Shown here: positions 5,201 through 33,100 of the stretch, in pieces
Numbering within the stretch: the first letter of the stretch is position 1
How the letters are laid out: each line of letters begins with the position of its first letter
Origin: Lytechinus pictus
Lineage: Eukaryota
Length of the DNA: 64,000 bases
Assembly (NCBI RefSeq): GCF_037042905.1
Contig: NC_087252.1
Coordinates: 5,024,001-5,088,000, forward strand
Reading direction: 5' to 3'
The notes under the pieces: model-generated
Told to the model about the DNA's origin: nothing
Database searches by the model: none
The model's input: the letters and a program-made list of their open reading frames with translations, nothing else
Made by a program: the position numbers and the translations under genes

Positions 5201-8200
5201 GAAATTATCAAGATAAAGAAGAACATTCCCTTCTTGTTTGACTCTAATACCCCTTTCATAAACCCAATAAAACCTATCCTCCAATTAGCCGCCTAAGAGT
5301 AATATGCGGATAATTCAATAAAAATTGTGTTCACAAACTCCGAAAATTATCCGCATTATTTTTACTAGCGCCCGTCCTGAAAAAGGCGGATAATCGTCAT
5401 GACAACTGGACACGCCCCCTCCGATGCGGTTGTGTTGGAAAAGGGCGACCTTGTGACCGCACCATGGCAATTATCCGCATTATTTGGAAATACGTTCATA
5501 AACTCAAAATCTTGTCCCGATGCCGCTATTATGCGGATAATAGCAGCATCAGAATAATGCGGATAACTCTTGTCCTCCTCTGATTTTACGACCAAATTAT
5601 GCTGCTATTAGCCGCATAATTGGGTTTTATTGGGTTTATGAAAGGGGTATTAAACATTGTTTTCAGTTGATGTCAAACCAGAGATCTACTAACTTGAATG
5701 TCTCCAAGCAAAACACAACTTAAAATTACAATTTATTCCAATGGATTAGCCAAGAATAAGATTTATATTCATTGATATTGAACTTATTTTATATGCCTTG
5801 GGGCTCCTCTTCTCAATATGAAAAAAAAAAGAGATTGTATCATCTTTAAGATGGACATGAATATTAAACAAGAATAACATTTCCTTCTGTACCACCCTAG
5901 AACTTGAAACAAATTCACTACTTTAATTTTCAGGAAGAAATAACCACTGAATGAGAAGACTATCAGCAAAGAGGCTTGTAAAGTTTGGGAGAAGCTGTTA
6001 CACTTCATCACTGAGTTGTTTATACTTCAAACCTGTTTTGTTTGTGACAAAGTATGGCTATAGGCAATTGAAGGAAGGTCAAATTCCATAGTTTGTCTTC
6101 AATATCCACTTTAAATCTGCTGAAGAACTTGAGCATTTCTTTCAGTTTTCATTAAAGTTGTCTTCCAAGATGCTTTATAATCAGAGTGCATGGATATCTT
6201 AATTTTACTCTGGAACAAGCCAAATATTAAAAAGACTTGGACTTAACTGGACTTGGAAAATTACTGATTGATCATATACATGTACAATTGATTGTTATGA
6301 TTGTCTGTAAAGAGTGATCAAGGAAAATCAATATTTTCAAAGGTCAAGTCCGCCCCCAAAAATGTTGATTTGAATATTAGAGAAAAATTAAACTAGCATA
6401 TTAAACACTGAAAATTCATCAAATGGATGTAAAAGAAGAAAGTTTAAAGACATTTTAAAGTTTCGCTTATTTTTCACAAATTCCACATGTTCAGGGAGGC
6501 GGAGGAATAATTGTTAATTCACAGTTTGGCAGTGAGGAAAGAAAAAAATTATTTCATATTTCGCATAATAAAATACAAAAGAAATAGTGAGTGGATGATG
6601 TCATCAGTCTCCTCATTTGCATACTGACCAGGATGCGCAACTGTTTTGTGAAATTACGCAAATCTTTAAAATGTCATAATAACTTTCTTATTTTACATTC
6701 GCTTTTGGTGAAATTTTCAGTGCTATGCTTGTTGGATCTTTCTCTTTTTATTCAAACCAACTTTTCATTGGGATGGTGTCCTTTAAGGCGCCAATTCAGG
6801 GTCAATTGCTACGATGAGTGTAAAGGGGGGGGGGGGTCAAGATTGGAACTCATCCCCTTTATTACTGTGATTATGAGCCTTCATTGGTGTTCCTCTCAAT
6901 ATTGATTTGAGAAATGACACCAGTCTCAAACAATTGAAACCAAACAGTCTCTGAAGATTTCATGTCACATTCAAGGGAAAGTCCAGTCAGTCAAACCCAG
7001 CTGGTTTGCAGAGAAGTGGAAAAATAGAGGAAGAGCAAACTTTCATTTATTTGAGAAAATTATTAAACTAGGGTCAAGGAATTTCGTTGTTGAATACAGA
7101 TGAACCCCTGCTCCCTCAAACCTGGCGACTCTGTCATGCATCCTATAGTGGGCTACTTATTTCATTATTTTCATATCAATTGTTTTTATCAGTGAATGAA
7201 TAATACAATTTGTGGTTTAGAGTATACTTTTCAGTTGTAATAACTTTAAACATTTTACTCATAATATGTTATCATCTTATTTATGCATTGCCTTCAGAAA
7301 GATATTGATGTTATTTGTTATCATGATTCTGTGACATCGATGTTATTTTTTTATCTGATTCTGTTTTCATCATCAGGTCATTGATGAAAAACAGCTTTTT
7401 ACCCAAATAAAATTATTCTCATAAAACAATTTTGTCAGCTCCTGCTGAAATTAGTTGCAGCCTATGCCCATCTATAATTTAGAAATATTCTTCACCCTAA
7501 AAAAATTCATGTATGTATCATTTTACAAATCTGCAACCCTCAATAACCATTAATAATTTACCAACCTACAACACCTAATGATATAGCGGTAGGAGTCAAA
7601 CAAGAATCATTGTGTTATGTTATGTAATCACTTTTACTTTACCCATGTACCTCCAAATGGTGGCAGCAGTGGGATCATGAAACACTCACAAAAAATTACA
7701 TCAAACCATGGACCTACATAGTAGGTCCATGATCAAACTGACTACTTGAACCAAAATACATGTACATTGTAGTTCTTTGGGTTCAACACTCACAGGTTTC
7801 AAAACTGAATGTCAATCTTATTTTTTATTTTCATTTAGGTATGGACCTCTCCTTTTAACAGTTTTTGATCGTTCTTATTTCCCCACATTTAGGCATGGAC
7901 CTCTCCTTTAAAACAGTTTTTGACACAATCAATGTCAATGTTTATCACTCATGAATCAAGTCCCAGCAGGACAATTAGATTCCTGCAGAGAGACTGGTTT
8001 GATAGTCTAGTCTTGATAGATCATCTACCCAGCAACTCACAGCCAAGATCTGTGTTCATGTTTTAAAAGTGTCTGTGACGCTGTGAAACCACTCTCACAA
8101 TATGATCTAGTTTAGCTGCTTTGGACACAGCATGAAATTTATAAACAGCTTCATCATTTATACTCATGATTACAAGAGTAAACATGTAGTGGTACACCCA

Positions 8201-11200
8201 GTGGCGTACCTAGGATTTTCCAGAGGGGGGGGGGGGGCAAAATCGGCCGCCAAAAAAATTGACAAGCAAAAAAAAGAAGAAAAAAAGAAAAAAAAGAAGA
8301 AGGTCTTCAAAGCTCGTCAGGGGGGGCAGTGATATGTATTTTGTATGGGTTGTGGCTCGTCAGGGGGGGCAGAGTGCCCCCTGCCCCCCCGTAGGTACGC
8401 TAGTGGGTACACCTGTAGGGGCTTTCAGACCAACTGGAAAACTGAGATAACCTGGCATTCTCTCTACCCTGATCCCATCTCCATGATCAAAATTTGAGGA
8501 ACAATAAAGCTGAACATTTCACTGAATCAGATGTAAAATAAGAAAGTTACATAACATTCAAAAGTTTTTTTTCTCAAAACAATATATTAGGCCTACAGGT
8601 ACATGTATGCTATACGTGTATAAAGGAGGGGGGGGGGTGATATTAAATGTATACTACATTTTTACACATACATGTAATTACAAAGGATTATATGATTTCC
8701 CATTTTCCATTGCTCTTGATATGGGTTAATATCCTGTCAAGGTAGGTATTCTTCTCTCTTATTGTATTTTATATCCTGTGATATTCTTGACGAAGAACAT
8801 CAATCAATAAATATGCTGACAAAACTGTCAACATGTACATGTAGGCCAATAAAAATCATCATCACTGTTCTGAATCTGATCAATATCTCACAATTCTGTA
8901 ATCCATTCTCTCTTTATATTTTATGTTTTCATGAACAATAAAGTCAAATCAAATAGCGGTACTTATGAATTATTACAGGGTATGCATTTCTCTTTCATGG
9001 AATTTGAAAAGGGCTCTGGTCTTTTGGTTTGGCACCGACTTTGTATCTCCATTCCATCTACCATGCTTCCTTGAAAATGAAAGCGCCTTTATTTGGGGGG
9101 GGGGGGGAGGAGCAAACTTTCATCTTATTGTTACTATGCCAACCAGGGCAATAGGTTGGTAGATAGGAGACAGTTATCCAATGTCAAAGGTCAAAGAGCG
9201 TTCACTGAAGGAGCTTGTCAACAGCTCCATGCTCCTTCAGTAGTCTTGATAATCAGACCTATTAAACCAATCACTTGCAAGACTTCAGTTCTGGGAAGAA
9301 GAGAAATACTAAATTTGGATATCACCAGCAGATAGGCTAAGCAAAATATTCATGACATCACCATTTTTTTTTAATTCATTAAAATGTAAAATATCTATTT
9401 TTTGTCTCATTACAATGTGAAACAAGGTTTGATTCCTCTCTGATCATTTAGAGAGTTGTGTCATTCTTGCGACCTATTGTGATTCATAAAGATGTTCCTT
9501 ATTGTCCAATCTGCAAAAATTGAAACATTCTGTATTTCATACACATATGTGTAAGGTATTTTAAAGAAACAGTAAACATCAATGCTCTCATTTGTATCAC
9601 TGTGTGGTGCATATTGGACTTGCTAAATTCTTTTTGTGAAAAATATGCAAAACTTTAGAATACTGTTCATAAAAACTTTCTTCTTTTACATCTAATTTTT
9701 AAGATATTTTCAGTGCAAAACTTTAGATTACTCTTCATAAAAACTTTCTTCTTTTACATCTAATTTTTAAGATATTTTCAGTAATGTATTATTTTTTTCC
9801 CTCTTTTCATTAAATTCCACTCTTGTTGGAGTGGACTTGATGTGAGCGAGAACACTTGATGTACACATCCTGCATGCATTAGGCCTCAATAGGGATTTTG
9901 TCACAGCTTTGAGCAAACGAGTCTGGGTAAAGTAAGACTATGGATGCGCTGAGGTATGTTCCTTCCAAAGATTTATGGGAGAGTTGTATTTGGATCAAGG
10001 TAGGATGAATTACTCCATGTTGTACATGAAGTTTGATGGATGGTGTTCAAAGGAAGAGGCATGTTTATAAACTTATAGCCTACATGTATTGCATCATTTG
10101 TATTCTTTTCTGTATTTTCTGAAATGAAAAGAGAAATACATGTACAGAGTATTTATTATGTGCTATACAAAAGAACTGACTATTCTTACTATCATAATTA
10201 GTATTAATAAGTTGATTTGTTTCATCATCACCATGAGAAAAAGGAACAAACCAATTCATCATCAGTTGTGTGAAGTTATCCCCCTCTTTTTCTATATTGT
10301 TTACAGTATTGAATTTGAAAATTGAAGTCTTGATTGATAGCATAAGATTTAGGGCTAACTATAGATAGTCTTGTTTTCTGTTTTTCTGTTTACCAGATTG
10401 TAAAAAAACCCAAAACAAAACAAAATAGACTATTAAACTTTTCTTTTATTCCATTGTTTATTCCTGACCTATATGTACAAGCATAATAGGCCTATTGCCA
10501 TTGGTGGCTTTTACAGTACTAGGGCCTACATGTATCTCTGTATCGCCCAAAGGCCAAACATTTTAATGTAGGCCTATACAAAGGTCCCTTCTGGTTCAAA
10601 AATTCCAAATTTTCCTCTGCCCTTCTCAAGTAATGTACAAATTAATAATCATAACAAGTGGAACGCCTCTGGCAGTCTCGCCTGCATTACGCAATTTAAC
10701 ATAGCAGCAGTGCTAACTTTGAAAACTACTATGAAATAATCATTCACAAAAACACCATTCATATAATGATATAATACCACGTTCATTGACCATAGATGAC
10801 ATTTGAACGGTGACTTAAGACTTGTCAACTACACCCATGTCCACATTTCATTCATTCTCTATCCATAAACTTTCAAAGTTATGATGGCACTTCAACAATT
10901 ACCCCAACATGGCCTAAGTTTATTGACCTTAACTGACCTTTGACTTGGTCTTGTGACCTGAAACTCACAGGGGATGTTCAGTGAAGCTTGATTACTCTTA
11001 TATCCCAAGTTTTATGAACTAGATCCATAAACTTTCAGAGTTAGGATGGTAATTCAACAAATACCCCCAACACGGCCAAAGTTCATTGACCTTTAATGAC
11101 CTTTGACCATGGTCATGTGACCTGAAACTCGTACAGGATGTTCAGTGATACTTGATAACTCTTATGTCCAAGTTTTATGAACTAGATCCATAAACTTTCA

Positions 11201-14200
11201 GAGTTAGGATGGTAATTTAACATATACGCCCAACACGGCCAAAGTTCATTGACCTTAAATGACCATTGACCATGGTCATGTGACCTGAAACTCACACAGG
11301 ATATTCAATGGTATTTGATTAACCTAATGTCCAAGTTTCATGAACTAAATCCATAAATTTTCAAAGTTATGATGGTAATTCAACAAATACCCCCAACTTG
11401 GCCAAAGTTCATTGACCCTAAATGACCTTTGACCTTGGTCATGTGACCTGAAACTCAGGCAGGATGTTCACTAATACTTGATTAACCTTATGTCCAAGTT
11501 TCATGGACTAGATTCATAAATTTTCAAAGTTATGATAGTAATTCAACAAATGCCCCCAACTTAACCAAAGTTCATTGACCCTAAATGACCTTTGACCTTG
11601 GTCACGTGACCTGAAACTCGAGCAGGATGTTCACTAATACTTGATTAACCTTATGCCCAAGTTTCATGAACTAGGTCCATATACTTTTTAAGTTATGATG
11701 TCATTTCCAAAACTTAACCTTCGGTTAAGATTTTGAAAATAATTTTCCCAACATGGTCTAAGTTCATTGACCCTAAATGACCTTTGACCTTGGTCATGTG
11801 ACCTGAAACTCAGGCAGGATGTTCAGTAATACTTGATTAACCTTATTTTCAAGTTTCATGAACTAGGTCCATATACTTTCTAAGTTATGATGTCATTTCA
11901 AAAACTTAACCTTAGGTTAAGATTTGATGTTGACGCCGCCGCCGCCGTCGGAAAAGCGGCGCCTATAGTCTCGCTCTGCTATGCAGGCGAGACAAAAACT
12001 AGAAGTAATTTACAAGTTTCAACTTCCTAATAAAAATATAGAGCAATATTGGAAAGTAGAGCATACAGGGATTCAGGGAATAATTTTCCTGGTATCGCAT
12101 CGCAATTTGCTCTACATTTTTTAAAGACAGCTACGCATGAAGTATTTTGTTTAGCATATTTTTACATAGGATTGTACATTATACTTGAGAAGTTGAGAGC
12201 TTTTCTCTAACATGTATGACCAAAAATGCCATTCAAATTTGTAAAGCAAAATTATTCCCTGGCATAGAAATTTTGAGTTTGTAAGGATGTTGAATGAGTT
12301 TTCAAAATAATACACATTTGAAATTTTTTGGGGGACTTGGGACATTCTACTTGTCTGAGAATCTGAGATGATCCCTAAATTGCCTTAGGGTCCATGTCAA
12401 CTCTTGCTGTTAAGAGTTTACATTTGTGGTTAGCCCCATGCTGTTAAAATCGATAGTGATTTGGAAATCCACAGGTTTTTTGTTGCATAGACAAAATATT
12501 CCTAAAGGACAGATTATGAGATGTATGAAAACAGTATTTCAATCATAAAGATGACAGGTAGAATAAAGGGATAGTCTCAAACTCATCTCTGTAATAACCA
12601 CAAAGCTTTCCTGCTTTTACCTCAGTCACATTTGCTCTACAGCGGCCAAATGGCAAGTCGAAAACAGCCGTTTTAACATTTTTTGTAATAGCTTTATATA
12701 GGTGGTTTGAATAAAAATGAATAAAACGGCTGTTTTCAATTCTCCGAAGAGCAAATGTGACTGAGGTATTTAGTAACAAAGATGATCCCCTCAAACCAGC
12801 CCTGCCTCAAATCATAGTTGATACAAAAATCAAAGTTTTTTGGTATTTTAATAAGAATGAAACCCTTGAATCAGTTGAATTCATATCAAAGAGAAAAATT
12901 TGAGAAAAAAATGAATGATGTTAATTGTTATGAGAGAATTACGAGCAATTGAATATTATTGTCAATGTCTCTGTCAATTAGATCCTCAAATTGGCAATGC
13001 AACCAATATCTTGGGCCTGTTTCAGAAAAGTTAACTACAGTACATTTATTTATTTATTTATTCATTTCTGCATGTCATGACAATGTACATAGTGTGACCA
13101 TCACAACATTAAATACATTAAATTTTACATAGTAATAATGTATAATTATGATCATTTACACAACTGATTAAACCAAGGCTGCAGTACATTAATAGTAACT
13201 TTATCATTCAATGGTAACTTCCTGAAAATCCTTGATTCTGATTGGCTGTTGAGTTTTGTTACCATGGTAGTTGCCATAGAAAGGCAAAGTTATAATACCA
13301 GAATAATACTAGTTTTATGCAACAGGCCCTGTGACGTAAAATACAACTTCCCAAAATATACTTATTTTTAGTACATATGCATATTTCACTTAAATTTTCT
13401 CTTTTATTTAGTCTACACATGAGATAAAATATTATGTAAAATAAAGATCTAATAAGGTTTCACAACATACATGCACCTACATGTACATACCATCATACTT
13501 ATTTTTTTCTCTTAATTCTAGGAGCAGGTGTGTGATACAATAAAAAACATTTTTTTCCAATTTTCTGAGAAAATGACATTTCAAATCCCAATGACTTTTT
13601 ACCAGTGATACACACATGTAGGTTAAAAAAATGCTCACATGCATGTATTTCACATATCAAATAACTAAAATTCAAATAACTTTTTTATTCTTTGATGGAT
13701 TTTCCTCAAACATTCACCAAGGTCCAATATTTTTAATCATTTTTTCTGCTATTTTTTACAATGATTTTCTTTTGTCACGGTGAACTTCCCCTTTAAAAGT
13801 CCACCCCCGAAAAAAGTTGATTTAAATAAATAGAGAAAAATAAAAAATGAATAACGCCGAAAACTTCATCAAAATCGGATGTAAAATAAGAAAGTTATGA
13901 CATTTTAAAGTTTCGCTTATTTTTCACAAAACAGTTCTATGCTCAACTCAGTGATATGCAAATGAGAGAGTCGATGATGTCACTCACTCACTATTTCTTT
14001 TGTTTTTTATTGTTTGAATTATACAATATCTCAGTTTTTACGAATTAGACAATTAGGAACCCCTTGTATTGCTGGAACCACAAAATGTTAAAATAATGGA
14101 ATTGCACGTGTTCAGGTAGGAATGAAACTTTGTTTCACATGACAATGACGAGAAAATCAAAATATTTCATATTTCATATAATAAAATACAAAAGAAATAC

Positions 14201-16355
14201 CAAACAGGATGTGCATATAACTGTTTTGAGAAATTAAGCGAAATTTTAAACTGTTATAACTTTCTTATTTTACATCCGATTTTGATGAAATTTTCAGTGT
14301 TATGCTTGTTTGATTTTTCTTTTTCTATTCAAATCAGTTTTTTGTTTAGGGTGACTTGTCCTTTGAAAAATCATCACTGGTAAAGATGACAAGTTCAATG
14401 GCCACAAATTTCTATAAGTCTCAAATTAGGATTTTTTCTCCCCCCACCCCATTTTTTTATTGGAGGGGGGGGGGGGGTAGGTAGGGCAGGGTGATGATGG
14501 GGTTCACCTAACAATTAGAGTTAAGATTTAACATGGATTTCTTTTTATTTCACAAAATCTTTCAGAACAATGTTTAGATCTATATCATGAGTAATACCCC
14601 TTTCATAAACCCAATAAAACCTACATGTATCCTCCAATTAGCCGCCTAAGAGTAGGCCTAATGCGGATAATTCAATAAAAATTGCGTTCACAAACTCCGA
14701 AAATTATCCGCATTATTTTTATGAGCGCCCGTCCTGAAAAAGGCGGATAATCGTCATGACAACTGGACACGCCCCCTCCGATGCGTTTGTGTTGGAAAAG
14801 GGTGACCTTGTGACCGCACCATGGCAATTATCCGCATTATTTGGAAATACGTTCATAAACTCAAAATATTGTCCCGATGCCGCTATTATGCGGATAATAG
14901 CAGCATCAGAATAATGCGGATAACTCTTGTCCTCCTCTGATTTTACGACCAAATTATGCTGCTATTAGCCGCATAATTGGGTTTTATTGGGTTTATGAAA
15001 GGGGTATAAGTGTGCCAAATATCTCAGAATAACAATTTAAAAGATATGATTTTCTTGGAAAAAAACCTTGGGCAGTCATTTTCAGATTGAATAAAAAAAA
15101 TGGTGCCCCATGTCTGCGACTGCGCACCCATTCACTTTGCACACGATTCAGGGATTTAAGGCTGCATTTTGAGGCCGTCACAGATTTTTAAAACAATATT
15201 TGTCTATGTATTGCGTGTGTAAATTTTGTGTTCGTTGCGCATCTTCTTTTACTAGTAGAATCGCGCAGATACGCGTCTGCGCAGACAAGGCCGGACTGTG
15301 CAGACTTTGGGGAACTTGCCATAGGCATAGAGAGTAAATCTAGATCCAGTTGTTGTGTGTCCGGACTTTAAAGGTCAAGTCCACTCCAACAAAATGTTGA
15401 TTTGAATCAATAGAGAAAAATCAGACAAGCACAATGCTGAAAATTTCATCAAAATCGGATGTAAAATAAGAAAGTTCTGACATTTCAAAGTTTCGCTTAT
15501 TTAAAAAAAAATATTTATATGAACGAGCCAGTTACATCCAAATTAGAGAGTCGATGATGTCACTCACTCACTATTTCTTTTGTTTTTTATTGTTTGAATT
15601 ATACAATATTTCAATTTTCACGAATTTGACGATTAGGACCTCCTTGCCTGAACCACAAAATGTTAGTATAATGGAATTCCACGTATTCAGGGAGGAATGA
15701 AACGTCATTTCACATGACAATGACGAGAAAATCAAAATATTTCATAATTCATATAATAAAATACAAAAGAAATAGTGAGTGAGTGATGTCATCAGTTCCC
15801 TCATTTGCATACCGGCCGGGATGTGCATACCGGTATAACTCTTTTGTGAAATGAAGCGAAACTTTAAAATGTCATAACTTTCTTATTTTACATCCGATTT
15901 TGATGAAATTTTCTGTGTTATGCTTGTTGAATTTTTCTCTTTTTATTCGAATCAAGTTTTTGTTGGGGTGGACTTGTCCTTTAAACAGCTATTGCCTATT
16001 TTGGCATTACCGGTACTTCACAAAGTTAACAAGCAAATGCAAAGTCTCATCAATTTTAGAACAAAATGTTATGCAATATCAAAGAGAACAAAATTGAAGA
16101 AGATTACAATATTGAATTCATATTTTTTGGACAATCCAATTCCAAACACCAAAGTCATGACAAAGAAAAAGAAGGCTTCAAAACTCCCAACCGTTGCCGC
16201 GGGCCAACCCCGGCCCACACCCCAATCCCAGTCCCCCCATCCTACAAAAATCACATTAACGATTCAATAAATTTACCATATTCCAGATGCAATCCAGATG
16301 ACAAAAGAATACAGATTAGCAGACAGCAATTCGATGGACTTTCGATAGAAAACAT
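1884..16355 (-). CDS. KIRREL: KIRREL/NEPH/Kirre-Rst/SYG-1-like Ig adhesion protein, 5' part (continues beyond the left edge of the window)
   Basis: Exons 16355-16277 (signal peptide MFSIESPSNCCLLICILLSSGLHLEY, G|gtaaat), 3319-2996 (Ig1) and 2201-1884 (Ig2), all phase 1 and in frame. Ig2 (PP..LDGSP..NLTC.A.AANPAATIEWFRD...EGAV..S...GK...VSEL...P...D.G....CRASNAA......L.FDVQ) closely resembles KIRREL1 Ig2 as I recall it. Gene symbol is by resemblance. Confidence 0.78.
2996..3319 (-). CDS. KIRREL-like exon, V-type Ig1
   Basis: VTLHCTV...WIKDG...RYSIVGDASAGEYNLKIVDVTLADDGLYQCQV; GT-AG. Confidence 0.9.
3962..4942 (+). mobile_element. Non-autonomous Helentron-associated (HINE/Tsp/pearl-like) element with ~162-bp internal tandem array
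   Basis: Subterminal inverted repeat GTCTCACCTGCAT / ATGCAGGTGAGAC, tandem units, (GCC)n microsatellite, 3' hairpin, A-rich flanks. Confidence 0.75.
5248..5649. mobile_element. PIF/Harbinger-like MITE, copy 1
   Basis: TIR TACCCCTTTCATAAACCCAATAAAAC; TAA/TTA flanks; near-identical to 14595-15006. Confidence 0.8.
6341..6782. mobile_element. Kolobok-like MITE, internally deleted copy
   Basis: Same termini and arms as 15372-15980. Confidence 0.68.
8199..8405. mobile_element. hAT-like MITE
   Basis: CAGTGGCGTACCTA...TAGGTACGCTAGTG with 8-bp TSD GGTACACC. Confidence 0.8.
10653..11998 (+). mobile_element. Second HINE/Tsp-like copy with a longer 163-bp tandem array
   Basis: Same ends as 3962-4942; unit marker at 10914, 11077, 11240, 11403, 11566. 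Confidence 0.78.
12618..12768. mobile_element. Small MITE (TIR TACCTCAGTCACATTTGCTCT); second copy ~18388-18493
   Basis: Perfect ~21-bp terminal inverted repeat. Confidence 0.65.
13797..14363. mobile_element. Kolobok-like MITE copy
   Basis: Homologous to 15372-15980. Confidence 0.68.
14595..15006. mobile_element. PIF/Harbinger-like MITE, copy 2
   Basis: Same TIR; TAA TSD on both sides. Confidence 0.82.
15372..15980. mobile_element. Kolobok-like fold-back MITE (TTAA TSD, AGG termini)
   Basis: ttaa|AGGTCAAGTCCAC...GTGGACTTGTCCT|ttaa with long imperfect inverted arms. Confidence 0.75.
16277..16355 (-). CDS. KIRREL-like exon 1, signal peptide (absent from ORF track)
   Basis: ATG at 16355, hydrophobic core CCLLICILLSS, phase-1 donor matching the acceptor at 3319. 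Confidence 0.7.
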
Positions 16356-17318
16356 TCTTGACTTCCAATATTCTCAGGACCCAAATCTCCCGTAGCGTAG
16401 AGCGCGTAGGCCGTATCCGATGCCTGGATGAAGCCACTGATGATGCCCAACTCTACCTTTTGACTTCAAATTGTTCAAATTTTATTATAATTTGGAAAGC
16501 AAAAAATTTGGTTACAGGAAATAAAGAACGAGAAACATGAATTCACGCTGTAATGGCTATTCAGAAGTATCCTATGTCTGTTGTTTTGATGTTCATATCG
16601 CCGGAGAAATATTGAATATCTTGGTTTAAACGCCACCTTTTCCAGATTCAGTCCACAAATCACAGCAGTACAGCCACGGCCACGCGAATAAGTGTTGCAA
16701 TCGATCTTGTAATCTGCGCCGCGTCTCCCCGGCCGCCCCGCACTTTCACTGGTCGCGATCGACGAGCTTGAGCGACTTTGCGATGCAGGATGCGAGTGTG
16801 TACGAGTTGAAAATGTGATGAGGCGGACCCTAAACTTCGAGGGAAAACTTTTGATTGACAGCTACCTTCTTACCTGAATTTCAGTGCATGTATTTTCTGT
16901 ATTCAATATAGATGGGTTGAAAACATAGATCTTTTCATAATTTAATAAGCAAAATGTTGATAATCATGGTATTATTACTAAACATTACTTGCATTTTGAA
17001 TTCAATGGTAAAACATCATTTTTTTTTTTTTTTTGAATTGAATTGAAACATCATTTGACCCAGAAATTTATTTGTAATATTTTGGGACTTTATCTAGATG
17101 CATTATGGTTCTGAGATATCCAATATCTTGTCGATTGAGGTAAGATAGAAAGGGACCGCATCCGACAGTTCGCCTGTAGCTAGCTAGGCTAGCTACGTCG
17201 CATCGTGAATTCGAGATGACTCCGAAAATCGAGATGATCTAGTAGTAGTCCTGAGTGAAGTTGTGAGAGACAATACACAATAAATAAAGATTGATTCTGA
17301 AGAAGAATACTGAAATTG
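16356..17318. promoter_or_regulatory. Putative bidirectional promoter / 5' UTR region between the KIRREL-like and nephrin-like genes, with a probable non-coding nephrin first exon ending at 17318
   Basis: Locally CpG-rich unique sequence (16380-16420, 16670-16840, 17155-17230) in AT-rich DNA; + strand donor G|gtaagt at 17318/17319; the first nephrin coding exon has an upstream acceptor and so needs a 5' UTR exon. Confidence 0.55.
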
Positions 17319-18844
17319 GTAAGTATTGTTAGTTGACATCCATTAGTGTTAAGTTACAAATATAAAACTAAGTAAAAGTTGGTGAAAGCATGAAGAGTTC
17401 GGTGAGAAACTATGGATAAGGTCTGGGGCAAGTCGTAATTTTCGGATTGTGTAGTTGTGGTGGCCGGTCGATCACAAAATCGGACAATGCAGTGTGTAAT
17501 GCAGATGAGTAGAGAAACACCTCATGATTAATATTCCTGTGCATGTTTTATCTTCTGTATGGTGTGTGGATTTATGTAAATGAGAATCTAAATCTACTTT
17601 GGTTGACTTTTGGATGGAAATTTAATTATCATGTTCACTTTTAATTTGAGAACTTTCACTTCACTTCAGTTCAATTGTGAATGTGAGTAGGCCTAGCTAG
17701 GACTAGGTTGACTTTCAAGTTTCAGTTTCAGATAGAGGACTATGTGATATGATCTGCCAGTTGCACTGTCTTTGTTGAAACAGGGACGTGTCCCTGGTTG
17801 AAATGATAAAGGCCTAGTAACAGATTCAATTTTCTGTTAGTAAAATGCTTGAGCAGAAGTGGGTAAAATTAAAGTCCATATAAAAGCTGGCAGACCCGAT
17901 CAAATAACTCATTTCATTGTGGCAGATGCTTTTACCCATGGACCTACTTGGTCCATGGTCCACCAAAGTTAGCTCCACTGTAGTCATGGTAGGAGCGCAT
18001 AGAGCTTATCCAATTGCCTATCCTAAGTAAAGTGTAATTGATACCTTCCTAATCCTAATTCCTATTTATTGTGTGATTAGCATCAATGAGCCTAGTTGTA
18101 TGTAAATACTCTGATCAATAGCTAGTCTTGTTAAGTTGTTGAATAGCATCACAACAAGGAACAATTGAATCTGTTTCAATGCTGAACACAATTTAGATGA
18201 TCAACAACCAATAAAGGATGATTATGTTCCACTAAATCTTCTTTGTATTCTGTAAGTGAAATGCAATAAAATGAACAAAGAGAAAAGGTAGGCCTAACTT
18301 GTTTATGTGCAAAGTGCGTTGTAACTTGAAAGATCAATTACACGATCAGTTTCAATTGTACTAGGAAGTTCCTATTGATTTTAAGAATACCTCAGTCACA
18401 TTTGCTCTGTAGACAGAGCCTGTGTGGCGAGTTAAAAACAGCTGTTTTAACATTCTTTATAAGAGCTGCATATAGGTGGTTGTGATTGAGGTACAAGTAC
18501 TGCAGGCTATACATGTAGGCCAATGACTACATGTACTTTAAAGGGGTACCCTGGGCTGAAATTAATCACAACTAAATAAATAAAGTAAAATTACATCCAG
18601 AGCAAAAGGCTTGATATGTCATGAAAATTTGGTAATAAATAAAGTTATTGAATTTGTAATTTTAGCAATGTTTTGTGAAAACAGTTAAGGGCCTATTCAC
18701 GCCATCATAATAGGTGTGTTGATGATAAGATGTCCCCACTTTTTTTTTTAATGCCATGATTGTTTCATATCTGTCTCCCTTGTACATGAAACAAAATAAG
18801 TTACAGCAGTGATTAGTATACACAATTAATCAGAGGTCAATTCA

Positions 18845-18896
18845 TTTTTTGTCTCACCTGCGAAGCAGAGTGAGACTATAGGCGCCGCTTTTCCGA
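18845..18896 (-). mobile_element. 3'-end fragment of the HINE/Tsp-like family
   Basis: gtctcacctgc...gagactataggcgccgcttttccga. Confidence 0.6.
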
Positions 18897-21087
18897 ATAG
18901 TACAACACAAAATGTCTGATTTTGATGAAATTTTCAGTGCTACATGTAGGTTGTCTGGTTTTATTTTTATATCTGTTCCAATCATATTATTTTTAGCCTG
19001 GATTACCCACTTTCATTAATACAGGTATGCTTGTGACTTGATAAAAGTAAATCATTTTGATTCTTGAAAAAAATACTGTACACGTTTATACATAAAATGT
19101 AGCCTACACTGTACATGTACTTGAAACATGGAGCTATGCTTGAAAGTAAGTTTTTGTTGGTTGACAGTTTTATTCCATATCAAAATAAAGGTATCTACAT
19201 ATAATATGTCTCATCTTGAATAATGTAGGTTTTTTGAAATGGTAAAGAATGTTCTCACCATGTGCTGTATTGAAATACAAGATCAGCCATTGGATTAGAA
19301 TACCGGAAATTTATTGCAAATTCAGTACATGTATTTTCCACAATGAAATGGTGTAAAGAGTAAAGATTTTCACTCTTTTCGAAGGAGAGTGTATGCAGTA
19401 AGACTAGTAACGTACTCATGTCATGCTGGGTCCTTAAGTGGTTTGAGGTCAAAGGTTAAATTACCACAGTGGTCATACTGTGAAGTTACCAAAAAACGCA
19501 GTACAGGTGGATGAACTGGATTTGAAGGCTCTCCACTGGACTTGCTGTAACATCCCTTCCAATCCTCTTTCTAAAAGACCATTCACACTCAAAGAAATTT
19601 TGATTTTTAAATACTTTAATTTTTAATAAAGTTTCTTTTTTTTTTAAAGTGTAGTTGTGTGAAATGTATTTTTATGAACAAAATTTCCCGGGTTTTGTAC
19701 ATTGTGGTATTTATTGTTTTAGTATCAGATAATATAAGGTATGAGAATTTAGAAATTTATTTTTTAGAGATCAAAGAATGTCAAGAAATTTGCATCACAT
19801 CTGGGTAGGATTACTGTAGCTATATTGGTAAATTTATGAAAAATCACATTTAGGCTCCAAAATGTGCTATATTCATTAAGTAGTCATCAACTTGAAATAA
19901 ACTGCCTCCCATTTTGATGAACAATCATCCCAAGTTGATAAAATCCATGTAACTTCATGGTGAATTACTTACTAAATTTTTAATGCAGTTGAAATTTCAA
20001 TGAAATGAGCAGAGAACATATGATAAAACTGAGAGAAGAGGCCAGCTTTTCCATGCTTCATGTACGCATCTCATTACATGTACATGTAGCTCATACAGTT
20101 GTGACAACAGCCATCTTGATTGATAGTTGTAATCTAAACATGTTGTGGAACCCAACCCATCAGAGTTTATACCAATCACATCACACTTGCTTGCTCTCTC
20201 CCATAAACACAGCACCCCCATTCATAAACAACAGCTTAAAGGGGGAAATCAGATACATGTTGTAGTACAGGTGTATCTTGAAAAAAATGGCATTGACTGC
20301 AAGCTGGCTGAACTACAAACAAGTGGCCTGAGACTGATTTTTCTCCATAAAGTAAAAAGAAAAGTTTATTGTAAAAAAAAAAGATTGTATCATTAAGAGC
20401 CAGCATACATGTAGGTCTATACTAATGTATATGTCCCTGAACAGCAAATAGGAGAATGGGAATTAAACACCTTTGCTTGATCTAATAAATTCAAAATTGA
20501 ACAGTGATCATTTTCTGTATACTTTTCACCATAACACTTACTTTTTTTTCCGACTAACAGTCATGAATTTTAGCCTACTATACCATTAATTTACTAAATA
20601 ATTATTACATTAAAAAAAAGTTTACTATGATCATATTCATAATGGTACTTTAATTAACGGCTTAGCAAGATAACTAGGGGAACATTTGTTTGAATGAGTT
20701 TGATTGCAACATTGTTAATTAAATCCTTTTTGAAATTTGAGCGCTTGCCTTAAAATATTCATCTTCATGGTCAAAATAGCATGCGCCTCAAAAAAAGGAA
20801 AAAAAGAAGAACATCAACGAGACTCTGTGAAAGTACATGTACCATTGGCAGTGATCCCTCAGTTTTCATGAAATCATCGCTCATGAATATTCTCCTAGTA
20901 CTAGCCTAGCACATCCTATATAGTATGAAGCATTTGCAGAGAATCGTTATCAATGGTTTTAGGAAGGATGAACTGTCATACCATTCTTATCTCCATGGTC
21001 AGAAGTCATCATCTCTTTCTATTTTCTTTTCTCTATCTCCCTTTCACAGGTTCAAAGTAAAAGAGATAACACAGACATTCTCCCACC

Positions 21088-21169
21088 ATGATTCACATCT
21101 CTTCCTGCCCAAGACGCCATCTTGCTTTGCTCGTTGCATTCACTAGTCTGTGTCTTCAAGTCTTTCCAG
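21088..21169 (+). CDS. Nephrin-like coding exon 1: signal peptide MIHISSCPRRHLALLVAFTSLCLQVFP
   Basis: ccaccATG context; polypyrimidine acceptor upstream (exon starts at 21050); donor G|gtatgt in phase 1 joins the 26846 exon. Confidence 0.8.
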
Positions 21170-24100
21170 GTATGTTTCTAGAAGTCCATGGTTCATGTTC
21201 TAAAATCGAAATATCTTTAATAATAATATGCATGGGTATCTTTGGAAAGAGAAAGCTTGTCACGTTCAAAACAGTTGTCATGTATCAAAGTAACAGCACC
21301 CCTACCCTTTTTTCTTAAATTTCATTTGAGTTTTTTTATCAATGAATAAATCATGCAGTTTTTATGTTCTATTAATGTATTTTCTATTTTGATGATCTTG
21401 ACATTTTATTCATTTTCAAGTTATTTGCTTGTGTAAAAATGTATTATTTGTTTCACTATAAAAAGCCTTTCCTAGTTGATAATTTTTTCCGGTGATGCTT
21501 TGTTTCATGTATGTCTATGATAGTGATATTTTTTTTTGTAATTGTTGATATTTTTTCATTGGGGCATTGATGAAAAACAGAAAAATGCTTAATCTTTGTA
21601 CTTTTTAAAATATATTCCAGTAGATAAATAAATGAATAACCAAGTATTCATGAATGACTGAGTGACTGAATGAATGGATATATATAAATGAATAAATAAA
21701 TGAAGAAGTGATTGAATGAATAATCGAAAGATAAATAAATGAATGTACAACTGAATGAATAAAAAAATTAATTTTTTACAATTACTGATCAAAAGCCAAT
21801 ACACAAAACAGGGTTTCCTTGTCTTAATGGAGGAACATGTATCAGCCTACATTTGCATTGCAATTGCAACAACCTATATGCTCTTTCTCTCTCTCTCTCT
21901 CTCTATTTCGTACTCATTATTTCTCCATTTCAATGCTTTTCAATAATTCTTAGCTCAGTTTCATAGCACTTGATAGTTTTTCACGTTCCTTTAATTTCCT
22001 TCCATTGTGATAAGACACATTGCAATTACCCCTTTTCCAGTAGGCAATCCTGAAGTCAAACCATTTTTTCCAGCGTTTCCATGAAAACCAAGATGGCCGC
22101 CTGTTATTTACCCTATAGCCTTGGCCTCAAGGGTATTTTATATTACATTGCTCCACAGTAGGAATTTGACAGCTACAGTCTACCTTGGCAGAAGTGAACT
22201 AAATCAAATATAAGCGAGGAGCTTTGAAGCTCCTTGATATAAGGGACCTTCTTGGAACTACATGTAGGCCTACTCCATACCATTGGCTGAAAAGTTTATA
22301 GTTATTCAAGGAAATTTGAGCTGGGCAGTATTTTCATATTATCAAAATTATGCGATATTGAAGAAATCTTGAATATTCGATAATAGTTTTAGTATACTAA
22401 TCTTTTGTGGAAACATGACATGACCTTTTTGTCAATTTTGTGAAATGTTAATCACCATTTACATGTATTGACCACAAATACTGCTCTGTATAAACCAACT
22501 CATAACTTTGTAAAAGTTGGTAAACTCTAAAAACGAAGAGCTGATTTATAGCTCCTAAAGAGCGTGTATAGCGACTGCACTTCGGAGTGCTGATTTGTCT
22601 AGTTCAAATTCGAACGAGAAAAATCAGCACTCCGAAGTGCAGTCACTATACACTCTCTTTAAGAGATATATTAGCCCTTTGTTTTTTATTACAAGCACTT
22701 ATATGGAATAAGCCTTCATAATGGATTTATGTTTTTCCAATTTGTCTAATGCCAATTCGTCCAATTGCCAACTCGTCTACTACCATTTGGTCTATCATCA
22801 GTTCGCCTACTCACCACATGGTCTACTTTCATTTAGTCTAATGCCATTCCATCTAATAACCAGTTGGTCCAAAAACCATTTAGTCCATATACCATTTGGT
22901 CCAATTAAACTAAAGTGTTAATTGTGCAAAATGAATGAAAAGAAAATGGATATTAGACCAACTGGTTATTAGATAAAATGGTAATAGACGAAATGGTGAT
23001 TAGACAAAGTGATGATTGGACCAAATGGTTATTGTACCAAATGGTTGTTAGACGAAATGTTGATAGACGGAATGGCATGAGACTAAATGAAGGTAGAGCA
23101 TGTGGTGAGTGGACGAGTTGGCAGTGGACAAATTGGCAATTTACCTTCATAATTTCCCCCTTCCCTACTCTCACAGGAGTGATGTACACATGTCATAATA
23201 AACATAAACAATTTCAGACTCTGCAATATATTGTGTTATCGGTGATATTTTGCTGTGATAATCGACTAATACCCCTTTCATACTGCCCTCTTCATTTTTC
23301 ACCGGCGAACTTCGCCGGCGAACTTCTCCGCCTCGCATTCCTCACTTCACCGGCGAAGAAAAAATGTACCCTTTCGCACTGACATTTCTTCCCCGGCGAA
23401 AGTCAACGGGCGATTGCAGATCAAACGAAAGAAAATTGTAAACATTACTTCTTACCTATTACGAAAAGGTATCAAAAAATTAATTACAACATATTTTGGA
23501 AGTATTACGATAAAAACCATTAATATCACCTTGTTTTTATATCTTAGCGCATTTTATAGTATGTTAAAAGTGCTTTTTAATAAATATCGTTAGTAAAAAA
23601 AAATATGTTCGAGGGAATTTACTTGGCCATAGCATTCAGCTGAGCTTGCAACTATCGCGCGCAGAATCTCGGTACAGGGGACTTCGGGAGAGAAAAAATT
23701 GACCTCTGACGTCATTAAAGAGGAGAAGTTCTCCGGTTTGCTTTCATACTGGCCTTTTCACTGGCGAACTTTGCCGGTGAAACAGTTTCGCCGGTGAAGT
23801 TCTCCACCTCTAGAGGTGGAGAAGTTCACCGGTGAAGTTCTCCTGTGTACCTTTCATACTGGACACTTTCCCCTTCGCTGGCGAACTTCGCCGGTGGAAA
23901 GCGCAATATGAAAGGGGTATAACATTGAAAAGAAATTTCTAACAGCATTACTTATAGGAAAGTAGTCTGAATAAACAGCCTGTATGTAAAGTCCATGATT
24001 TGACATCTGCAGAAATTGTAACAAGTTGTAATTTGTGCTAGTCTTATGCCAAGAAGACCCACTAGTTTCAATCAGGGTCTGTGCCTTCAGACTAAACTGA

Positions 24101-27100
24101 TAATGGTGTGTTATTGAAAAATGCGTGATCATTGGGTGGTAAGAAAGTGAACCCCCAAAACATGGATACCTTCATAAACTAAAAAAAAGGGTATGCATTT
24201 AACTCATCATCAGACACATTTATTCACGAACCTTTGAAAAATTTAATTTTTGGATATTGTACTTGACTTTAGGATAGCTGCTTGCCAGTGATGTCATAAT
24301 TTCACAAGCAAAATGAAATATTCTTATAAAATCTTCATGTGATGATGTTTACTCTAAAAGTTAATATTTTTCTGCTTTTATTGAAACCAACTGACAACAT
24401 CTTTCATTTCCTCCATCTTACCATCATCCACAATGCAATTTGATGCTCCTTAAATCATACAAGAGGGAATGTCTCTAAACTCTATTATGACAAAACCACA
24501 ATCACTATATCTACTTGTACAAGCCATTATCCTTGACTTTGACTTTCATAATGCCATTCAATCAAATACCTGAAAGCGTGCACTTTAAGACCCCCAATTC
24601 TGTCACACAATGGGGTGTTTAACTTTACAAAGATTTTCCATTCAGAGGTGAACCAAAATAGGTGGTTTCAGACCGCCTCGAAGTTCGCCAGTTCCAGGTA
24701 TTCTCTGATCGGGAAATTTACCCCGATCAGAAAATACCAGGTATTTTGGCGGTCTGAAAGCAAACTACGCGTAATATCCCCGAAAGAAAATACCCGATAA
24801 ATAGTAGGTACTTGGCGAAATTACGAGAACTTTCGCGGGGATTTTTCCAAGGTCGTGGGTATTTTGGCGGTCTGAAAGCAAATTACGGGAACTTTTAGCC
24901 CAGCGTGTCGTTGGGTGCGGCGCCGTGCATGGGTTGCTGCTGGGCTAGTGATTTTGAATTTCGCGCCTTGCTGCTTATCAGACCATACTGCGCATGCTCG
25001 TAACTTCAGGAACTTATCCCGAAGGGTATGTTTCAGGGCGGTGTGAATGCAGGAATAATTAATGGGTATTTTTCAGCCTAAAAAAGTTCTCGTAATTTAA
25101 CGGGGATTCTTGTGATCGAGGCGGTTTGAAACCACCTATTGTCTGCGGGTGTTTGCGCTTGGGATAATTTTTCAGCGTAATTCTGTTGTCAGACTTTTGT
25201 TACAATTTCAGTAAATTGGTGCAAAGGTGCGACCTCTGTTAACCCCCGAGGCATTTGGATTTGGTGTTTGATTTCTTGAGTGGAATTTGCAAAATCTTTC
25301 CAAATTATCCATGAGGTCAGACTCAGAATTTGGAGAGTGTTCACATGGTTCTTTAACTAAGCCTAAAGTAATATTTTATAATTTTTTTTTAAGGGCAAGT
25401 TCCTCAATATTTAGGCAAGAAAGATGGACAGAATTCGTTACCTTTTTTTGATGGGTGTATTTTCATGCCAGAATTGACCATTTTCGGAGAGAGCATCTGC
25501 TTGTAGGCCACATGTAAATATGGATGATGTCTATTAAAATTTTGGTTTATTTCCAATTCGTCAAATGCCAATTCGTCCAATTGCCAACTTGTATACTACC
25601 AGTTTCGTCTAAAACTTGAGTGTTAATTGTGCAAAATGAATGAAAAGAAAATGGGTATTAGACGAAATGATAATAGACGAAATGGTGATTAGACAAAGTG
25701 ATGATTCGACCAAATGGTTATTGGACCAAATGTTGATGGATGGAATGGCATCAGACTAAATAAAGGTAGACCATGTGGTGAGTGCACAAGTAGGCAGTGG
25801 ACGAATTGGCAATTTACTAATATTTTCACATCACGTTCATTGAAGCACCTCCATGATAGAAGTAGCCCTACAGTGTACTGTATGTTTTTAGCATAAGAAT
25901 ATTTTCACAGTTCATTACTAATTCCATAAAAATGCCATTATCTCATACCCACTTCTGTATTAAAGAAATGTGCATAGGCTTTATTTATCTTTTTAATAAT
26001 CATGAACCATAAAAAAATGGGAATTAGTGGATGACATATCAGCTGCCTATGCTTACAAGATGTCCCACATTCAAACTTAACAAATTCTAACTCTTACTCT
26101 ACATTGTACAGTAGAGGCTCTACCTTCTCCAAGATGTTTTTCTTAGGCCTGTAAAACAAACTTTTCGTCAGGGTTAACTTCCCTGTCAACAATTTTTTAA
26201 TAAAGGTAAAAAAAAATTGCCATCCCAACAGCGATTTAATGTACTTTGATGATATAAAAGCTACAGGTCAGGACTAGGCCCATGTCTGTATGTAGAATCT
26301 CACGTTGAAACCAAAGGGGGTGGGGCAACCTAAAGGCACCTATTATCTTGAGGTCGTACCCTTTCCACAGTCTCTTGAAAAATTAATGTGGCAGAGAAAT
26401 ATGAGGTTGAACAGAGTCAAGAGAGAGGGTCCATTTGTCAGGTGGAATAAGCAGGTTTAAAGGTCCAGCAGGTGTTTTCTTAGATTTTGGAAATTCAGCT
26501 TATTCTATTATTTTAAATATTTATTAAGTTTGCTTTCTTAGAAATTTCAGTTTATATCTTGAATATTACTGTAAATCAAGCAAAAAATTGTTTTGTGTGT
26601 AAATCTGCGACATTGGATTTATAAGCTTTAACATTGCAGTGATTCAATGAATGGGGGATTGTCCAGAGCTCTTTCGAGCATTTTGGGGACATAATCTCCC
26701 CGAGCCCTGTGTATTTTTTCCCCTGCTGTAAATGTCTTTCTGTTTGATATATTTATTTTTTTTAACAAAAAAGTTATAGATGTGACTTCTCATTTGTTTT
26801 TAACAATACTTATTTTTCTGATTGTTTATGTATTTCACTATGCAGTCCGCTGCCAGCAGAGCTTTGCGACCACGCCGGTGGACACCGAAGTTGTGGAGGG
26901 GCAAGACGTGACCCTTCAATGTGCCGTGGACAATCTTCAAGGTCGTATTATCTGGTCCAAAGACGATGTTTTACTTGGATCAGATAGATCACTACCAGGA
27001 TATGACAGATATACAGTGAAAGGTAAATGAATTAAGGCTGTTCTTGAGACAAATACCATATTTACTGGGGAATATTTATTTTTTTACCAGGCCTCTAAAT

Positions 27101-30100: not shown

Positions 30101-33100
30101 ATTGTATTGTTTCAACTGTTTTTGGCATTTGAAAAAAGAAAAACAACAACCATTTGTGGATCATCTCAACATTAAGTATATAGCAATACCATACACCTGT
30201 ATGTGCATTAGGACTGTATGAATATGGAAAATGAAACCTTTGAAACATGATAGCTTGTGCGAAAACAGAACAAAAATCAAAGAAACAGATAAACAAAAGT
30301 TTGAGAAAAATTGAATAAACAATCAGAAAGTTATGAGCATTTGAAGTTTAGATCATTATTTTAATGTAGATCCTCCTATTGGCAATGTGACAAAGATGTG
30401 TGATGTTACATTTGAACAACTTTGCCAGTACTTTTATATACAGTATATCACATTTATCAGTAGATCATGTATTCTTTCTATAGGAGGGCATGTAATACAG
30501 ATTTTCAAAGAATACATTATGTAGATAAAGATTTTGTATCACCATAAGAAAGAGCAAAAAGAGACATTTTGGGGGCATTTCATAGTCAGTCAAAGGGAAA
30601 ATTGTTTACATGTGACATTGTAGTATTTAGGAACTCAGAGACATAAAACTAGATACAATGAATTTAGAAGTAGAGATGATTTAATCTATTCCAAGATGTC
30701 CGATCATATTGAGATCATGTGTACATAAAGGGGACTGAGCCCTCGACGTTGACTGTTAGCACAGTCTTACAAACACAACATATTTCCCTCCTTTAAAGAG
30801 ATGAATAATGTTATATAACTAAGTCCAGATATGAGTTCAAAAGTTTATGAGTCCAGAAAATAAAACTTGTTTATTAACAACAAGCCTGAAATTTTATTAA
30901 CCTATATTGAGCAATTGTTTCATATGAGTCCAAAACTTAAACGTTCCAGTTTTTTAATTTCTATGCTCAATACTTGTCGGCTCTAAGGATTTAAGATCTG
31001 TAATCTCGTAGATATCCAGGTCGTCTCCTTAGACGCTGAGAACGACGAACAGTTCGCGGTTCTGCTCGCTGTTGCTCTTGATCTTCAGTGCTTGTAGGGA
31101 ATGGAAAGGTGTCTTCCCAATCGCTTTCATTCATGTTGCCTGGCTTGCTCGCGATAATGCGTCTGGTGTTCCATCGCGTTCCGTCATCTAGTACAAATGC
31201 ATTCGAGCCGAGCTTGTTCACGATCTGTTTGGGTTTCGATACCCCCGAAGCTAGCTTGTGCTTGCGATTTGGACGCTTTACACGAACCCAGTCACCGATA
31301 GCGAATTTCGGTGTGATTGCTCGTCTGCGTTTGTCAGTGTACGCTTTCATGCTTTGCTGTTTCCTCTCAATCTCTCTCGCTTCAGCCTGTGTGCTTGCAG
31401 GCTCTGAAACCGGTGGTTTCAGGATGTTGAATGGCATACGGAGGTTCCGTCCCAACATCAACTCTGCTGGAGTTTTTCCGGTTAGCGAATGAGGTGTTGA
31501 GCGATACGTGCGTAGTAGGGTCTGGATGGCCTTATCGAAGGTCATTCCATCTGCGAGATTCGCTTTCAAGCTCTCCTTGATTACCCGGTTGAAACGCTCT
31601 ACGCCGCCATTGCTTTGAGGGTTGTAGCGAGTTGTGAGGCGATGTTGAATTCCATTAACGGCTAGGAATTCTTCGAACTGTTCAGACGTGAACTGTGGTC
31701 CATTGTCCGTGGTGATAGATTCTGGAAGACCCCACTTGGTAAACATCTTCTCCAAGATGCTAATGACTGATGTCGTAGTGACTGAGCTTGTTGCTGCTAT
31801 CTCAGGCCACTTGCTATGGAGGTCGTGTACAACTAACAAAAATCGCTGACTTTGAGGAGCGGCTTGGACTTCCCCAAAGATGTCGACTTGAAGTTGCTGC
31901 CATGGCTTCTTCGGCCATGGGGTCGGCTGCAGTGGTGCTGGCCGCGGTTGAGTTTTCTCGCTGAGAGTACACGCTTCACAAGATCTGACGAGATCTTCTA
32001 CGCGTCGATCGATCGCTGGCCACCAGATTGCTTCGCGACATCGTTGCTTCATCTTCACCACACCTGGATGACTTTCATGTGCGGTTTGTAACAAACGATG
32101 TTGAAGCGATTTCGGGATTACCGCTTGGGTGCCACGGGCGATACACGTGTCGTCGAAGATAGCTAGCTCATTGCGAACACGATGATATGGAACGAGGTCT
32201 TCGGAAATCTCTCTAGGCCATGCTGTTTGGAGATAATGACAGACCTTCTGTAGAGTTGCGTCTGCGGCTGACTCTGTTTTCAGCTGCTCACGCGTCACAA
32301 GCTTTGCGGTCACGTGAGAGATCACCATAAGAACGTAGTCTTCGACGTCGTCTTCGATGTCGCTTCTTGCATGGCTATCGCGATTGCTATTCGCGTTCGG
32401 TGTACAGCTAAGCATATCTGCTACTCGGTTGCGTGAACCCGCGAGATATTCGACCTTGAAATCATATTGGTGCAGTCGATCTGACCATCTGTAGATGCGG
32501 AGTGGGCGGTGTCCAGATCCTGAAGTGCTCAACAAGGTTGTTAAGGCTTGATGGTCAGTACGAAGTGTGAACTTGCGACCGTAGAGGTACATATGCCAGT
32601 GTTCGCAGGCATAGATGCATGCGAGAGCTTCGCGTTCTCCTGTAGAATACTTTCGCTCTGTGTCCGACAACGCTCGAGATGCGAATGCGACCGGACGTAC
32701 ACTGCCGTCGATCGTTTGCGATAACACTGCTCCGATAGCGAACGCTGACGCGTCTGTAGTCACGTACGTTTCAGCGCTTGGAGTGAAGTGAGCGAGAACT
32801 GGCGGCTCTGCGATTCTTCCTTTGAGCGTGTTGAATGCGGTCTCTTGTGCGTTGTGCCATTCCCAAAGCGCGTCCTTCCGGAGAAGCTTCTGCAGAGGTT
32901 CTGCGATTTCTGCGTATTGTGGCACGAATTTGCGGTAGAAGTTCGTTGTTCCCAAGAATGAGGCTAGCTCCTTCACATTCGTTGGGGCTGGGAGTGTTCC
33001 CTTCTTAAGTGTCAGACCGTCATCCTCCATTAACAGACGTTCTCTAATACGGGGAATAGACGTCTTTTCGATTAGTTGATCTCTAACCAGTTCATCGTTT

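Follow-up and report, generated by a model that had tools for sequence, protein, structure and literature searches.

The closest described system is the mammalian gene pair NPHS1-KIRREL2, one gene each of the nephrin and the Kirrel (Neph) family, which lies head-to-head and 5 kb apart in human (PMC2736951). In mouse the Nphs1-Kirrel2 pair has a bidirectional promoter that is bound by Ptf1a (10.1101/387977). Here we describe a pair of the same two families in the sea urchin Lytechinus pictus, within a stretch of 64,000 nucleotides (NC_087252.1, positions 5,024,001 to 5,088,000 of the forward strand), which is called the window and in which positions are counted from the first letter. A sequence-only reading had placed a Kirrel-like and a nephrin-like gene around a compact shared promoter in this window and had pointed to the mammalian pair, for which the two papers above provide the printed record. 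The sea urchin and the mammalian pair are alike in that members of the same two families lie 5'-to-5' and encode partner proteins, and possibly also in co-expression in filtering cells, to judge for the sea urchin from published expression. They differ in the gap, at most 448 bp in the sea urchin versus about 5 kb in human, which makes the sea urchin pair about ten times more compact, and in that the proximal 1.1 kb of the sea urchin locus is without a PTF1 site, the promoter there being a candidate.

Further systems bear resemblance to this locus. COL4A1/COL4A2 are likewise paralogous partners in a bidirectional arrangement that was kept across animals and lost in some protostomes (PMC12141075). 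However, the two collagen chains need one cell, whereas nephrin and Kirrel, which bind from one cell to another, can come from different cells, and therefore the constraint on their linkage would be weaker than for COL4A1/A2. SYG-1/SYG-2 of C. elegans and Kirre-Rst/Sns-Hbs of Drosophila are orthologues that share the domain layout; they keep a Gln in the C-strand of the first immunoglobulin (Ig) domain, Ig1, and a following Phe/Leu, whereas echinoderm Ig1 domains are without both. In fly and worm, genes of the two families are not known to lie next to each other. Sea urchins also possess kirrelL, a Kirrel-like Ig protein required for skeleton-cell fusion (PMC8903837). The kirrelL gene is single-exon, whereas the Kirrel gene described here has at least three coding exons, separated inside the window by introns of 13 kb and 0.8 kb, and identity with kirrelL was rejected for the latter.

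Already known are thus the mammalian pair, the invertebrate orthologues and the COL4A1/A2 analogue; new are the sea urchin pair and the probably deeper history of the arrangement. Linkage of nephrin and Kirrel in invertebrates was unreported in a full-text literature search, the scope of which left out most subscription papers and the list of 110 conserved paralogous pairs of PMC3514665, where a prior listing is possible. It is not reported in the consulted passages of PMC8805411, PMC10565955, PMC4290089, 10.1101/462036 and PMC3514665; four supplementary files of PMC6292497 gave no matches, and the supplement of PMC8805411 gives no gene positions.

The two genes and the interval between them

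Single-exon protein searches found two L. pictus entries, a 723-residue 'kin of IRRE-like protein 3' (P0003) and a 1272-residue 'nephrin-like' protein (P0006), whose genes are both assigned to one contig of 42,376,555 bp. The nephrin gene is on the plus strand; its 22 coding exons, from the ATG at 21088 to the stop at 52280, reproduce P0006 at 1272 of 1272 residues, and all 21 introns within the coding region are GT-AG. Kirrel is on the minus strand, and only its Ig1 and Ig2 are encoded in the window, the remainder of the gene extending past position 1. Exon 1 has an ATG at 16355, 26 hydrophobic codons and a GT donor at 16277, in agreement with the signal-peptide exon of the sequence-only reading. 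Joined in phase with exon 2 (3319-2996; Ig1, a V-set domain that binds the partner) and exon 3 (2201-1883; AG/GT ends in frame; Ig2, a CD80-like C2-set domain by the Pfam match C2-set_2 on P0003), it gives 240 residues without a stop. Of these, 232 of 240 agree with the RefSeq Kirrel of L. variegatus (P0026), which opens with the same signal peptide, and the part beyond the signal peptide (exons 2 and 3) is identical to P0003 at 213 of 213.

That the plus gene is a nephrin and the minus gene a Kirrel is virtually certain. By Pfam, P0003 has five Ig stretches, a V-set and a C2-set first, and no fn3, and P0006 has nine Ig stretches and an fn3 at 937-1018; five-Ig and nine-Ig plus FN3 layouts define the two families (PMC10084454). 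Hydropathy places transmembrane helices at 494 in Kirrel and 1057 in nephrin, the latter followed by a cytoplasmic tail. Both tails end in PDZ-binding type motifs, ATNV in Kirrel (ATHV or QTHV in insect and vertebrate-type rows) and GYLV in nephrin (G-x-LV in most nephrin rows). The closest matches in the PDB are mouse Kirrel1 for Kirrel (8e-38) and SYG-2 for nephrin (8e-39). Nephrins have four internal Ig domains and the FN3 in addition to what Kirrels have, and Kirrel Ig3-5 (P0003 221-489) matches nephrin Ig7-9 (P0006 644-933) better than nephrin Ig3-5 (mean 122 versus 68 bits, 28 rows), and therefore the five homologous domains were used for trees. In a tree of 64 rows the split between Kirrel and nephrin has an approximate likelihood-ratio support (SH-aLRT) of 100. 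In a second tree of 33 rows with three outgroups (of 16 candidates three matched over a sufficient length, and two of these join on long branches) support is 100/97 for Kirrel and 96/88 for nephrin, and each sea urchin protein sits with its echinoderm and Saccoglossus (hemichordate) orthologues. The minus gene thus groups neither with nephrins nor with other members of the Ig superfamily, and the candidate identity as a nephrin paralogue was rejected by trees and architecture. The sea urchin Kirrel is the single pro-orthologue of Kirrel1/2/3.

Where do the two transcripts begin? Four runs from two studies (X1-X3 and X5) were aligned to positions 16000-21300. They had been chosen because they contain this stretch, and read depths were not used to rank genes; X1-X3 are annotated 'RNA?', a guess, the annotation of X5 is unknown, and spliced joints were taken as the sign of transcripts. 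The contigs are unstranded, so that the starts are bounded rather than mapped. In all four runs the nephrin donor at 17318 (G/GTAAGT) is joined to the acceptor at 21050, which bears out the 5' untranslated region (UTR) exon predicted from the letters. The joint is exact in X5 (GT..AG, 3731 nucleotides skipped) and is the same junction plus three extra letters in X1-X3. It connects the non-coding exon 1 (17213..17318, its 5' end being a lower bound) across intron 1 (17319..21049) to exon 2 (21050..21169), which holds 38 nucleotides of UTR, the ATG and the signal peptide. Kirrel exon 1 (16277..16764, with at least 409 nucleotides of 5' UTR) is also covered in all four runs by contigs of 523-2867 nucleotides that depart from the genome exactly at the 16277 donor and run on; its joint with exon 2 lies outside the aligned stretch and rests on the orthologous proteins. 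On the Kirrel side the contigs end at 16678, 16693, 16743 and 16764, and on the nephrin side they start at 17213, 17218, 17250 and 17250. The transcribed parts are therefore separated by at most 448 bp (16764 versus 17213), and 963 bp lie between the Kirrel ATG and the nephrin donor, in keeping with the earlier estimate of less than 1 kb. We are highly confident that Kirrel and nephrin lie head-to-head with starts less than 0.5 kb apart. Both genes are present in all four of these selected runs, and no contig crosses 16765-17212, missing cover not being taken as evidence.

The three additional letters of X1-X3 lie where the nephrin UTR exon ends (17316-17318), are found neither in X5 nor in the genome, and could be an allele or a microexon. 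Each 5' UTR contains two short upstream open reading frames, of 11 and 8 codons in Kirrel (16356-16764, minus strand) and of 8 and 2 codons in nephrin (17202-17318, plus strand).

The interval had also been described as the main CpG-rich unique patch, and this was borne out in part. Positions 16277-17318 have no self-match anywhere in the window, and 16551-16850, a shoulder over the Kirrel start region, ranks first in CpG among the 585 of 1274 300-bp windows left after masking (23 CpG, observed/expected 1.29, GC 49%), closely followed by 24751-25050 with 22 CpG. The CpGs form a pair of shoulders, one at about 16650-16850 and one at about 17100-17250, overlapping both first exons, whereas the middle (16850-17099) has no CpG and 21-29% GC and contains a run of 16 T (17019..17034, plus strand), possibly a nucleosome-excluding tract. 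A GC-rich island was therefore rejected as a description of the interval. Nephrin intron 1 is CpG-depleted (observed/expected 0.06-0.37 across 17501-20500), and the pattern would fit an unmethylated promoter adjoining a methylated gene body. We consider 16765..17212, with its AT-rich core, the candidate shared promoter. When 13 motif patterns were scanned against 300 shuffles, which ignore local GC clustering, only the GC-box (P 0.04) and an EGR/WT1-like pattern (P 0.007) exceeded the shuffles; the GC-box/EGR-like site at 16733-16741 serves as a lead only. The one match of the PTF1 composite anywhere in the window lies at 26045.

The two families in other animals

Linkage elsewhere was assessed by proxy, that is, by assignment to a contig of the same size and by the spacing of protein accession numbers. 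In each of the nine assemblies of invertebrate deuterostomes that gave data (L. pictus, L. variegatus, Diadema setosum, D. antillarum, Acanthaster, Patiria, Asterias rubens, the crinoid Anneissia and an amphioxus hybrid), both genes lie on a same-sized contig, among these a scaffold of 205,160 bp in Acanthaster and one of 1,610,592 bp in Anneissia. These counts were made without the S. purpuratus Kirrel, the Saccoglossus nephrin contig, the Antedon nephrin and the Anneissia Kirrel accession. Among the eight assemblies with both numbers, the accessions are at most two apart in four, namely L. variegatus, D. setosum, Acanthaster and amphioxus. In L. pictus they are 190 apart though the genes are adjacent by sequence, and therefore distant accession numbers do not show separation. 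In a second D. antillarum copy, which was not counted, both models are 5'-partial and on different contigs, which fits a break between head-to-head genes but also missed small exons. In S. purpuratus two nephrin models (P0027 and P0028) lie on one 53-Mb scaffold, and no Kirrel surfaced in the full-length search.

Among spiralians, reciprocal-best-hit orthologues are listed three accessions apart in Lingula and four in Capitella (Table 2 of PMC8294545); the terms 'synten', 'chromosom' and 'head-to-head' occur nowhere in that paper. Altogether, accessions are at most four apart in six assemblies from four phyla, and by our own estimate, assuming sets of about 30,000 proteins, two arbitrary proteins would be so close with a chance of about 3 in 10,000. 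A metagenome scan confirmed 20 of 193 candidate stretches and found both genes at none of these 20 loci, the flanks being short and the scan hence uninformative. The proposal that the pair is older than vertebrates is supported by the proxy linkage in echinoderms and amphioxus, and the two spiralians go beyond what had been claimed. Of the three outcomes that the sequence-only reading had named as refuting it (a minus gene of another family, starts mapping far apart, no linkage in related taxa), none was obtained. We consider it very probable that the head-to-head layout was inherited from the deuterostome ancestor and probable, with less assurance, that it goes back to the bilaterian ancestor; orientation is documented for L. 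pictus, human and mouse.

Moreover, the partner-binding domains of echinoderms have changed in both families. A Gln of the C-strand directly before the Ig1 Trp is found in none of eight echinoderm Kirrels as compared to 46 of 50 others, and in none of nine echinoderm nephrins as compared to 34 of 35 others (most of these other rows being classed as non-echinoderm from their tree position). The column is one of three of 55 (Kirrel) and one of four of 60 (nephrin) conserved columns that are lost in all echinoderm rows; the sites are residue 43 of P0003 (window 2996-3319, minus strand) and residue 63 of P0006 (window 26846-27022, plus strand). The Phe/Leu five residues past the Trp is also missing in both echinoderm partners, and Saccoglossus retains both residues. 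By the motif spacing given in the text of PMC8628261 the lost Gln maps to Q52 of mouse Kirrel2, a specificity site. Mapped likewise, the position of the Kirrel2 hotspot L58 is polar or Gly in all eight echinoderm Kirrels, and the F-strand Gln (the essential Q128 of mouse Kirrel3) is retained in seven of eight echinoderm Kirrels and four of nine nephrins. Ig1 interface sites vary among invertebrate Kirrels (PMC8628261). It is a reasonable reading of these sequences that binding specificity may have changed jointly in both echinoderm partners. When the structures of both Ig1 domains were predicted without alignments, the median was 0.32, the mark being 0.34, which counts neither for nor against such a change.

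Origin and control of the pair

How did this arrangement arise, and what keeps it together? The reading that we favour overall, with moderate confidence, is that of an ancient inverted-duplication pair kept by shared regulation in podocyte-type cells; that functional shared regulation maintains the pair we hold with marginally less confidence. One self-binding Ig adhesion gene may have undergone an inverted duplication in an early bilaterian, which would have created both partners and the head-to-head layout in one step; the proteins themselves have prompted the proposal of a homodimeric ancestor of both families (PMC10084454). [quoted passage not shown] To judge from the proxies, the layout would have been inherited by echinoderms, amphioxus and mammals and probably by some spiralians too, with losses in several protostome lines; the patchy survival is most simply explained by loss. 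In the sea urchin the two genes would be transcribed divergently from the interval of at most 448 bp, where one open chromatin region, with CpG-rich start regions flanking an AT-rich core, probably initiates both transcripts; the cell type would be set by enhancers, which most likely sit in the long first introns. Both genes may be switched on in the same podocyte-type cells, those of the axial organ and of the larval left coelom, where the partners would bind through their first Ig domains across filtration slits, as orthology and published expression suggest. [quoted passage not shown] Nephrin and Kirrel are also found in filtering cells of a phoronid, an annelid and a hemichordate (10.1101/2020.11.15.378034). 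Shared control of the pair is thus suggested by the arrangement and by expression together.

Several observations weigh against this reading. The X3 haplotype carries three substitutions and four small deletions in 16625-16733, the CpG-rich Kirrel UTR, and therefore this part is not tightly constrained, and the PTF1 composite (written as E-box plus TC-box) has no match in 16277-17400. The proxies give neither distance nor orientation, and accessions are distant in Patiria (1,146), Asterias (402) and D. antillarum (33,680). Closeness of accessions is missing in six of eight protostomes: in Owenia both genes lie on one 37-Mb chromosome, 1,157 accessions apart, in Priapulus they lie on different scaffolds, and in Hypsibius, Brachionus, Macrostomum and Octopus, as well as in the tunicate Ciona (1,285), they are 1,285-14,627 accessions apart (Table 2 of PMC8294545). 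A quick-search tree of Ig1-2 (113 rows) did not recover Kirrel as one group; four outgroup rows had been dropped for want of a long match and two rows were mis-cut or mislabelled, and the five-domain trees replaced it. Furthermore, two conserved Ig1 interface positions are altered in echinoderms, the onychophoran kirrel is not co-expressed with nephrin in the filter (10.1101/2020.11.15.378034), and the fly partners act from different cells (PMC8805411).

The main rival is a passive pair with two separate promoters: the linkage would be inherited, a relic of the founding duplication in slowly rearranging genomes, with two back-to-back core promoters served by their own intronic enhancers, and mammalian co-regulation would be a later gain. 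This would account for the two distinct CpG shoulders with a CpG-free middle, the missing PTF1 site, the six protostomes in which closeness is not seen and partners that can be expressed in different cells. However, the gap of at most 448 bp persists where introns are several kb long and repeat-filled, short 5'-5' spacing marks co-regulated ancient pairs (PMC3514665), and expression in the axial organ is co-elevated (PMC12113024), so that we regard passive linkage as unlikely, if clearly the strongest competitor. Less plausible by far is that echinoderms, chordates and spiralians reached the arrangement separately, or that the accession proxies mislead and only echinoderms and mammals share it. 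One survey traced at least 68% of linked paralogue pairs to separate tandem duplications (PMC3514665), and the only coordinates used here are those of the L. pictus window; yet the grouping of each family across phyla leaves no room for lineage-specific duplication, and the close accession spacing in six assemblies of four phyla stands against the small chance estimated above. That the main Kirrel transcript begins at an exon near 8059 and the 16.3-17.3 kb region is chiefly a nephrin promoter is very improbable, for although the RefSeq model P0003 begins there and the exon 1-exon 2 joint lies outside the aligned stretch, the exon gives no signal peptide, the orthologues open with the 16355 peptide and the contigs of all four runs leave the genome at the 16277 donor.

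Within the favoured reading of an ancient pair under shared control a wider scenario could be imagined, which we put forward tentatively and with less than even confidence. The pair may be the trace of the inverted duplication that made the heterophilic filter and synapse pair in the bilaterian ancestor; the shared promoter would have brought the partners together in one cell type and so helped to found ultrafiltration cells. It would survive in echinoderms, amphioxus, mammals, a brachiopod and an annelid and would have broken where the partners act from different cells, and echinoderms would have jointly rebuilt the Ig1 faces. A single origin of ultrafiltration organs has so far been argued from the expression of nephrin, Kirrel and ZO1. 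If the unit is common to humans, amphioxus, echinoderms and probably spiralians, it would add a genomic character to this question, date the NPHS1-KIRREL2 arrangement before vertebrates and explain the origin of both families. The sea urchin suits reporter and CRISPR work, and both the co-regulation of podocyte genes and the question of true podocytes in echinoderms could be tested with one 1-kb fragment.

Further features of the window

The RefSeq first coding exon of the L. pictus Kirrel (8041..8059, minus strand) has six codons and no signal peptide, is missing from the L. variegatus and Diadema orthologues, and was rejected as the main start; it is probably a mis-prediction or a minor form. 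The model starting there masks the compact head-to-head layout.

Besides the interval, CpG-rich and largely unmasked patches are found at 24751-25200 and 23201-23600, in the region of nephrin intron 2, and at 53801-54300, 3' of the gene; they may be enhancers, or else repeats with a single copy in the window. Antisense in nephrin intron 2 lies a Gypsy-type retrotransposon frame of 839 codons (30994-33510, minus strand) with the richest CpG of the window; it matches RNase H and integrase but not the reverse-transcriptase core. Remains of a BEL/Pao-type retrotransposon (DUF1759, DUF5641) occupy several frames downstream of nephrin (57839-61128, plus strand). In each of the four runs a great many contigs match a dispersed repeat of 51 nucleotides (18846-18896), which has inverted copies at 4892 and 11948. 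Kirrel intron 1 contains two arrays of units of about 163 nucleotides (4042-4959 and 10842-12045) and a 300-nucleotide duplicate with 98% identity (5304-5603 and 14661-14960).

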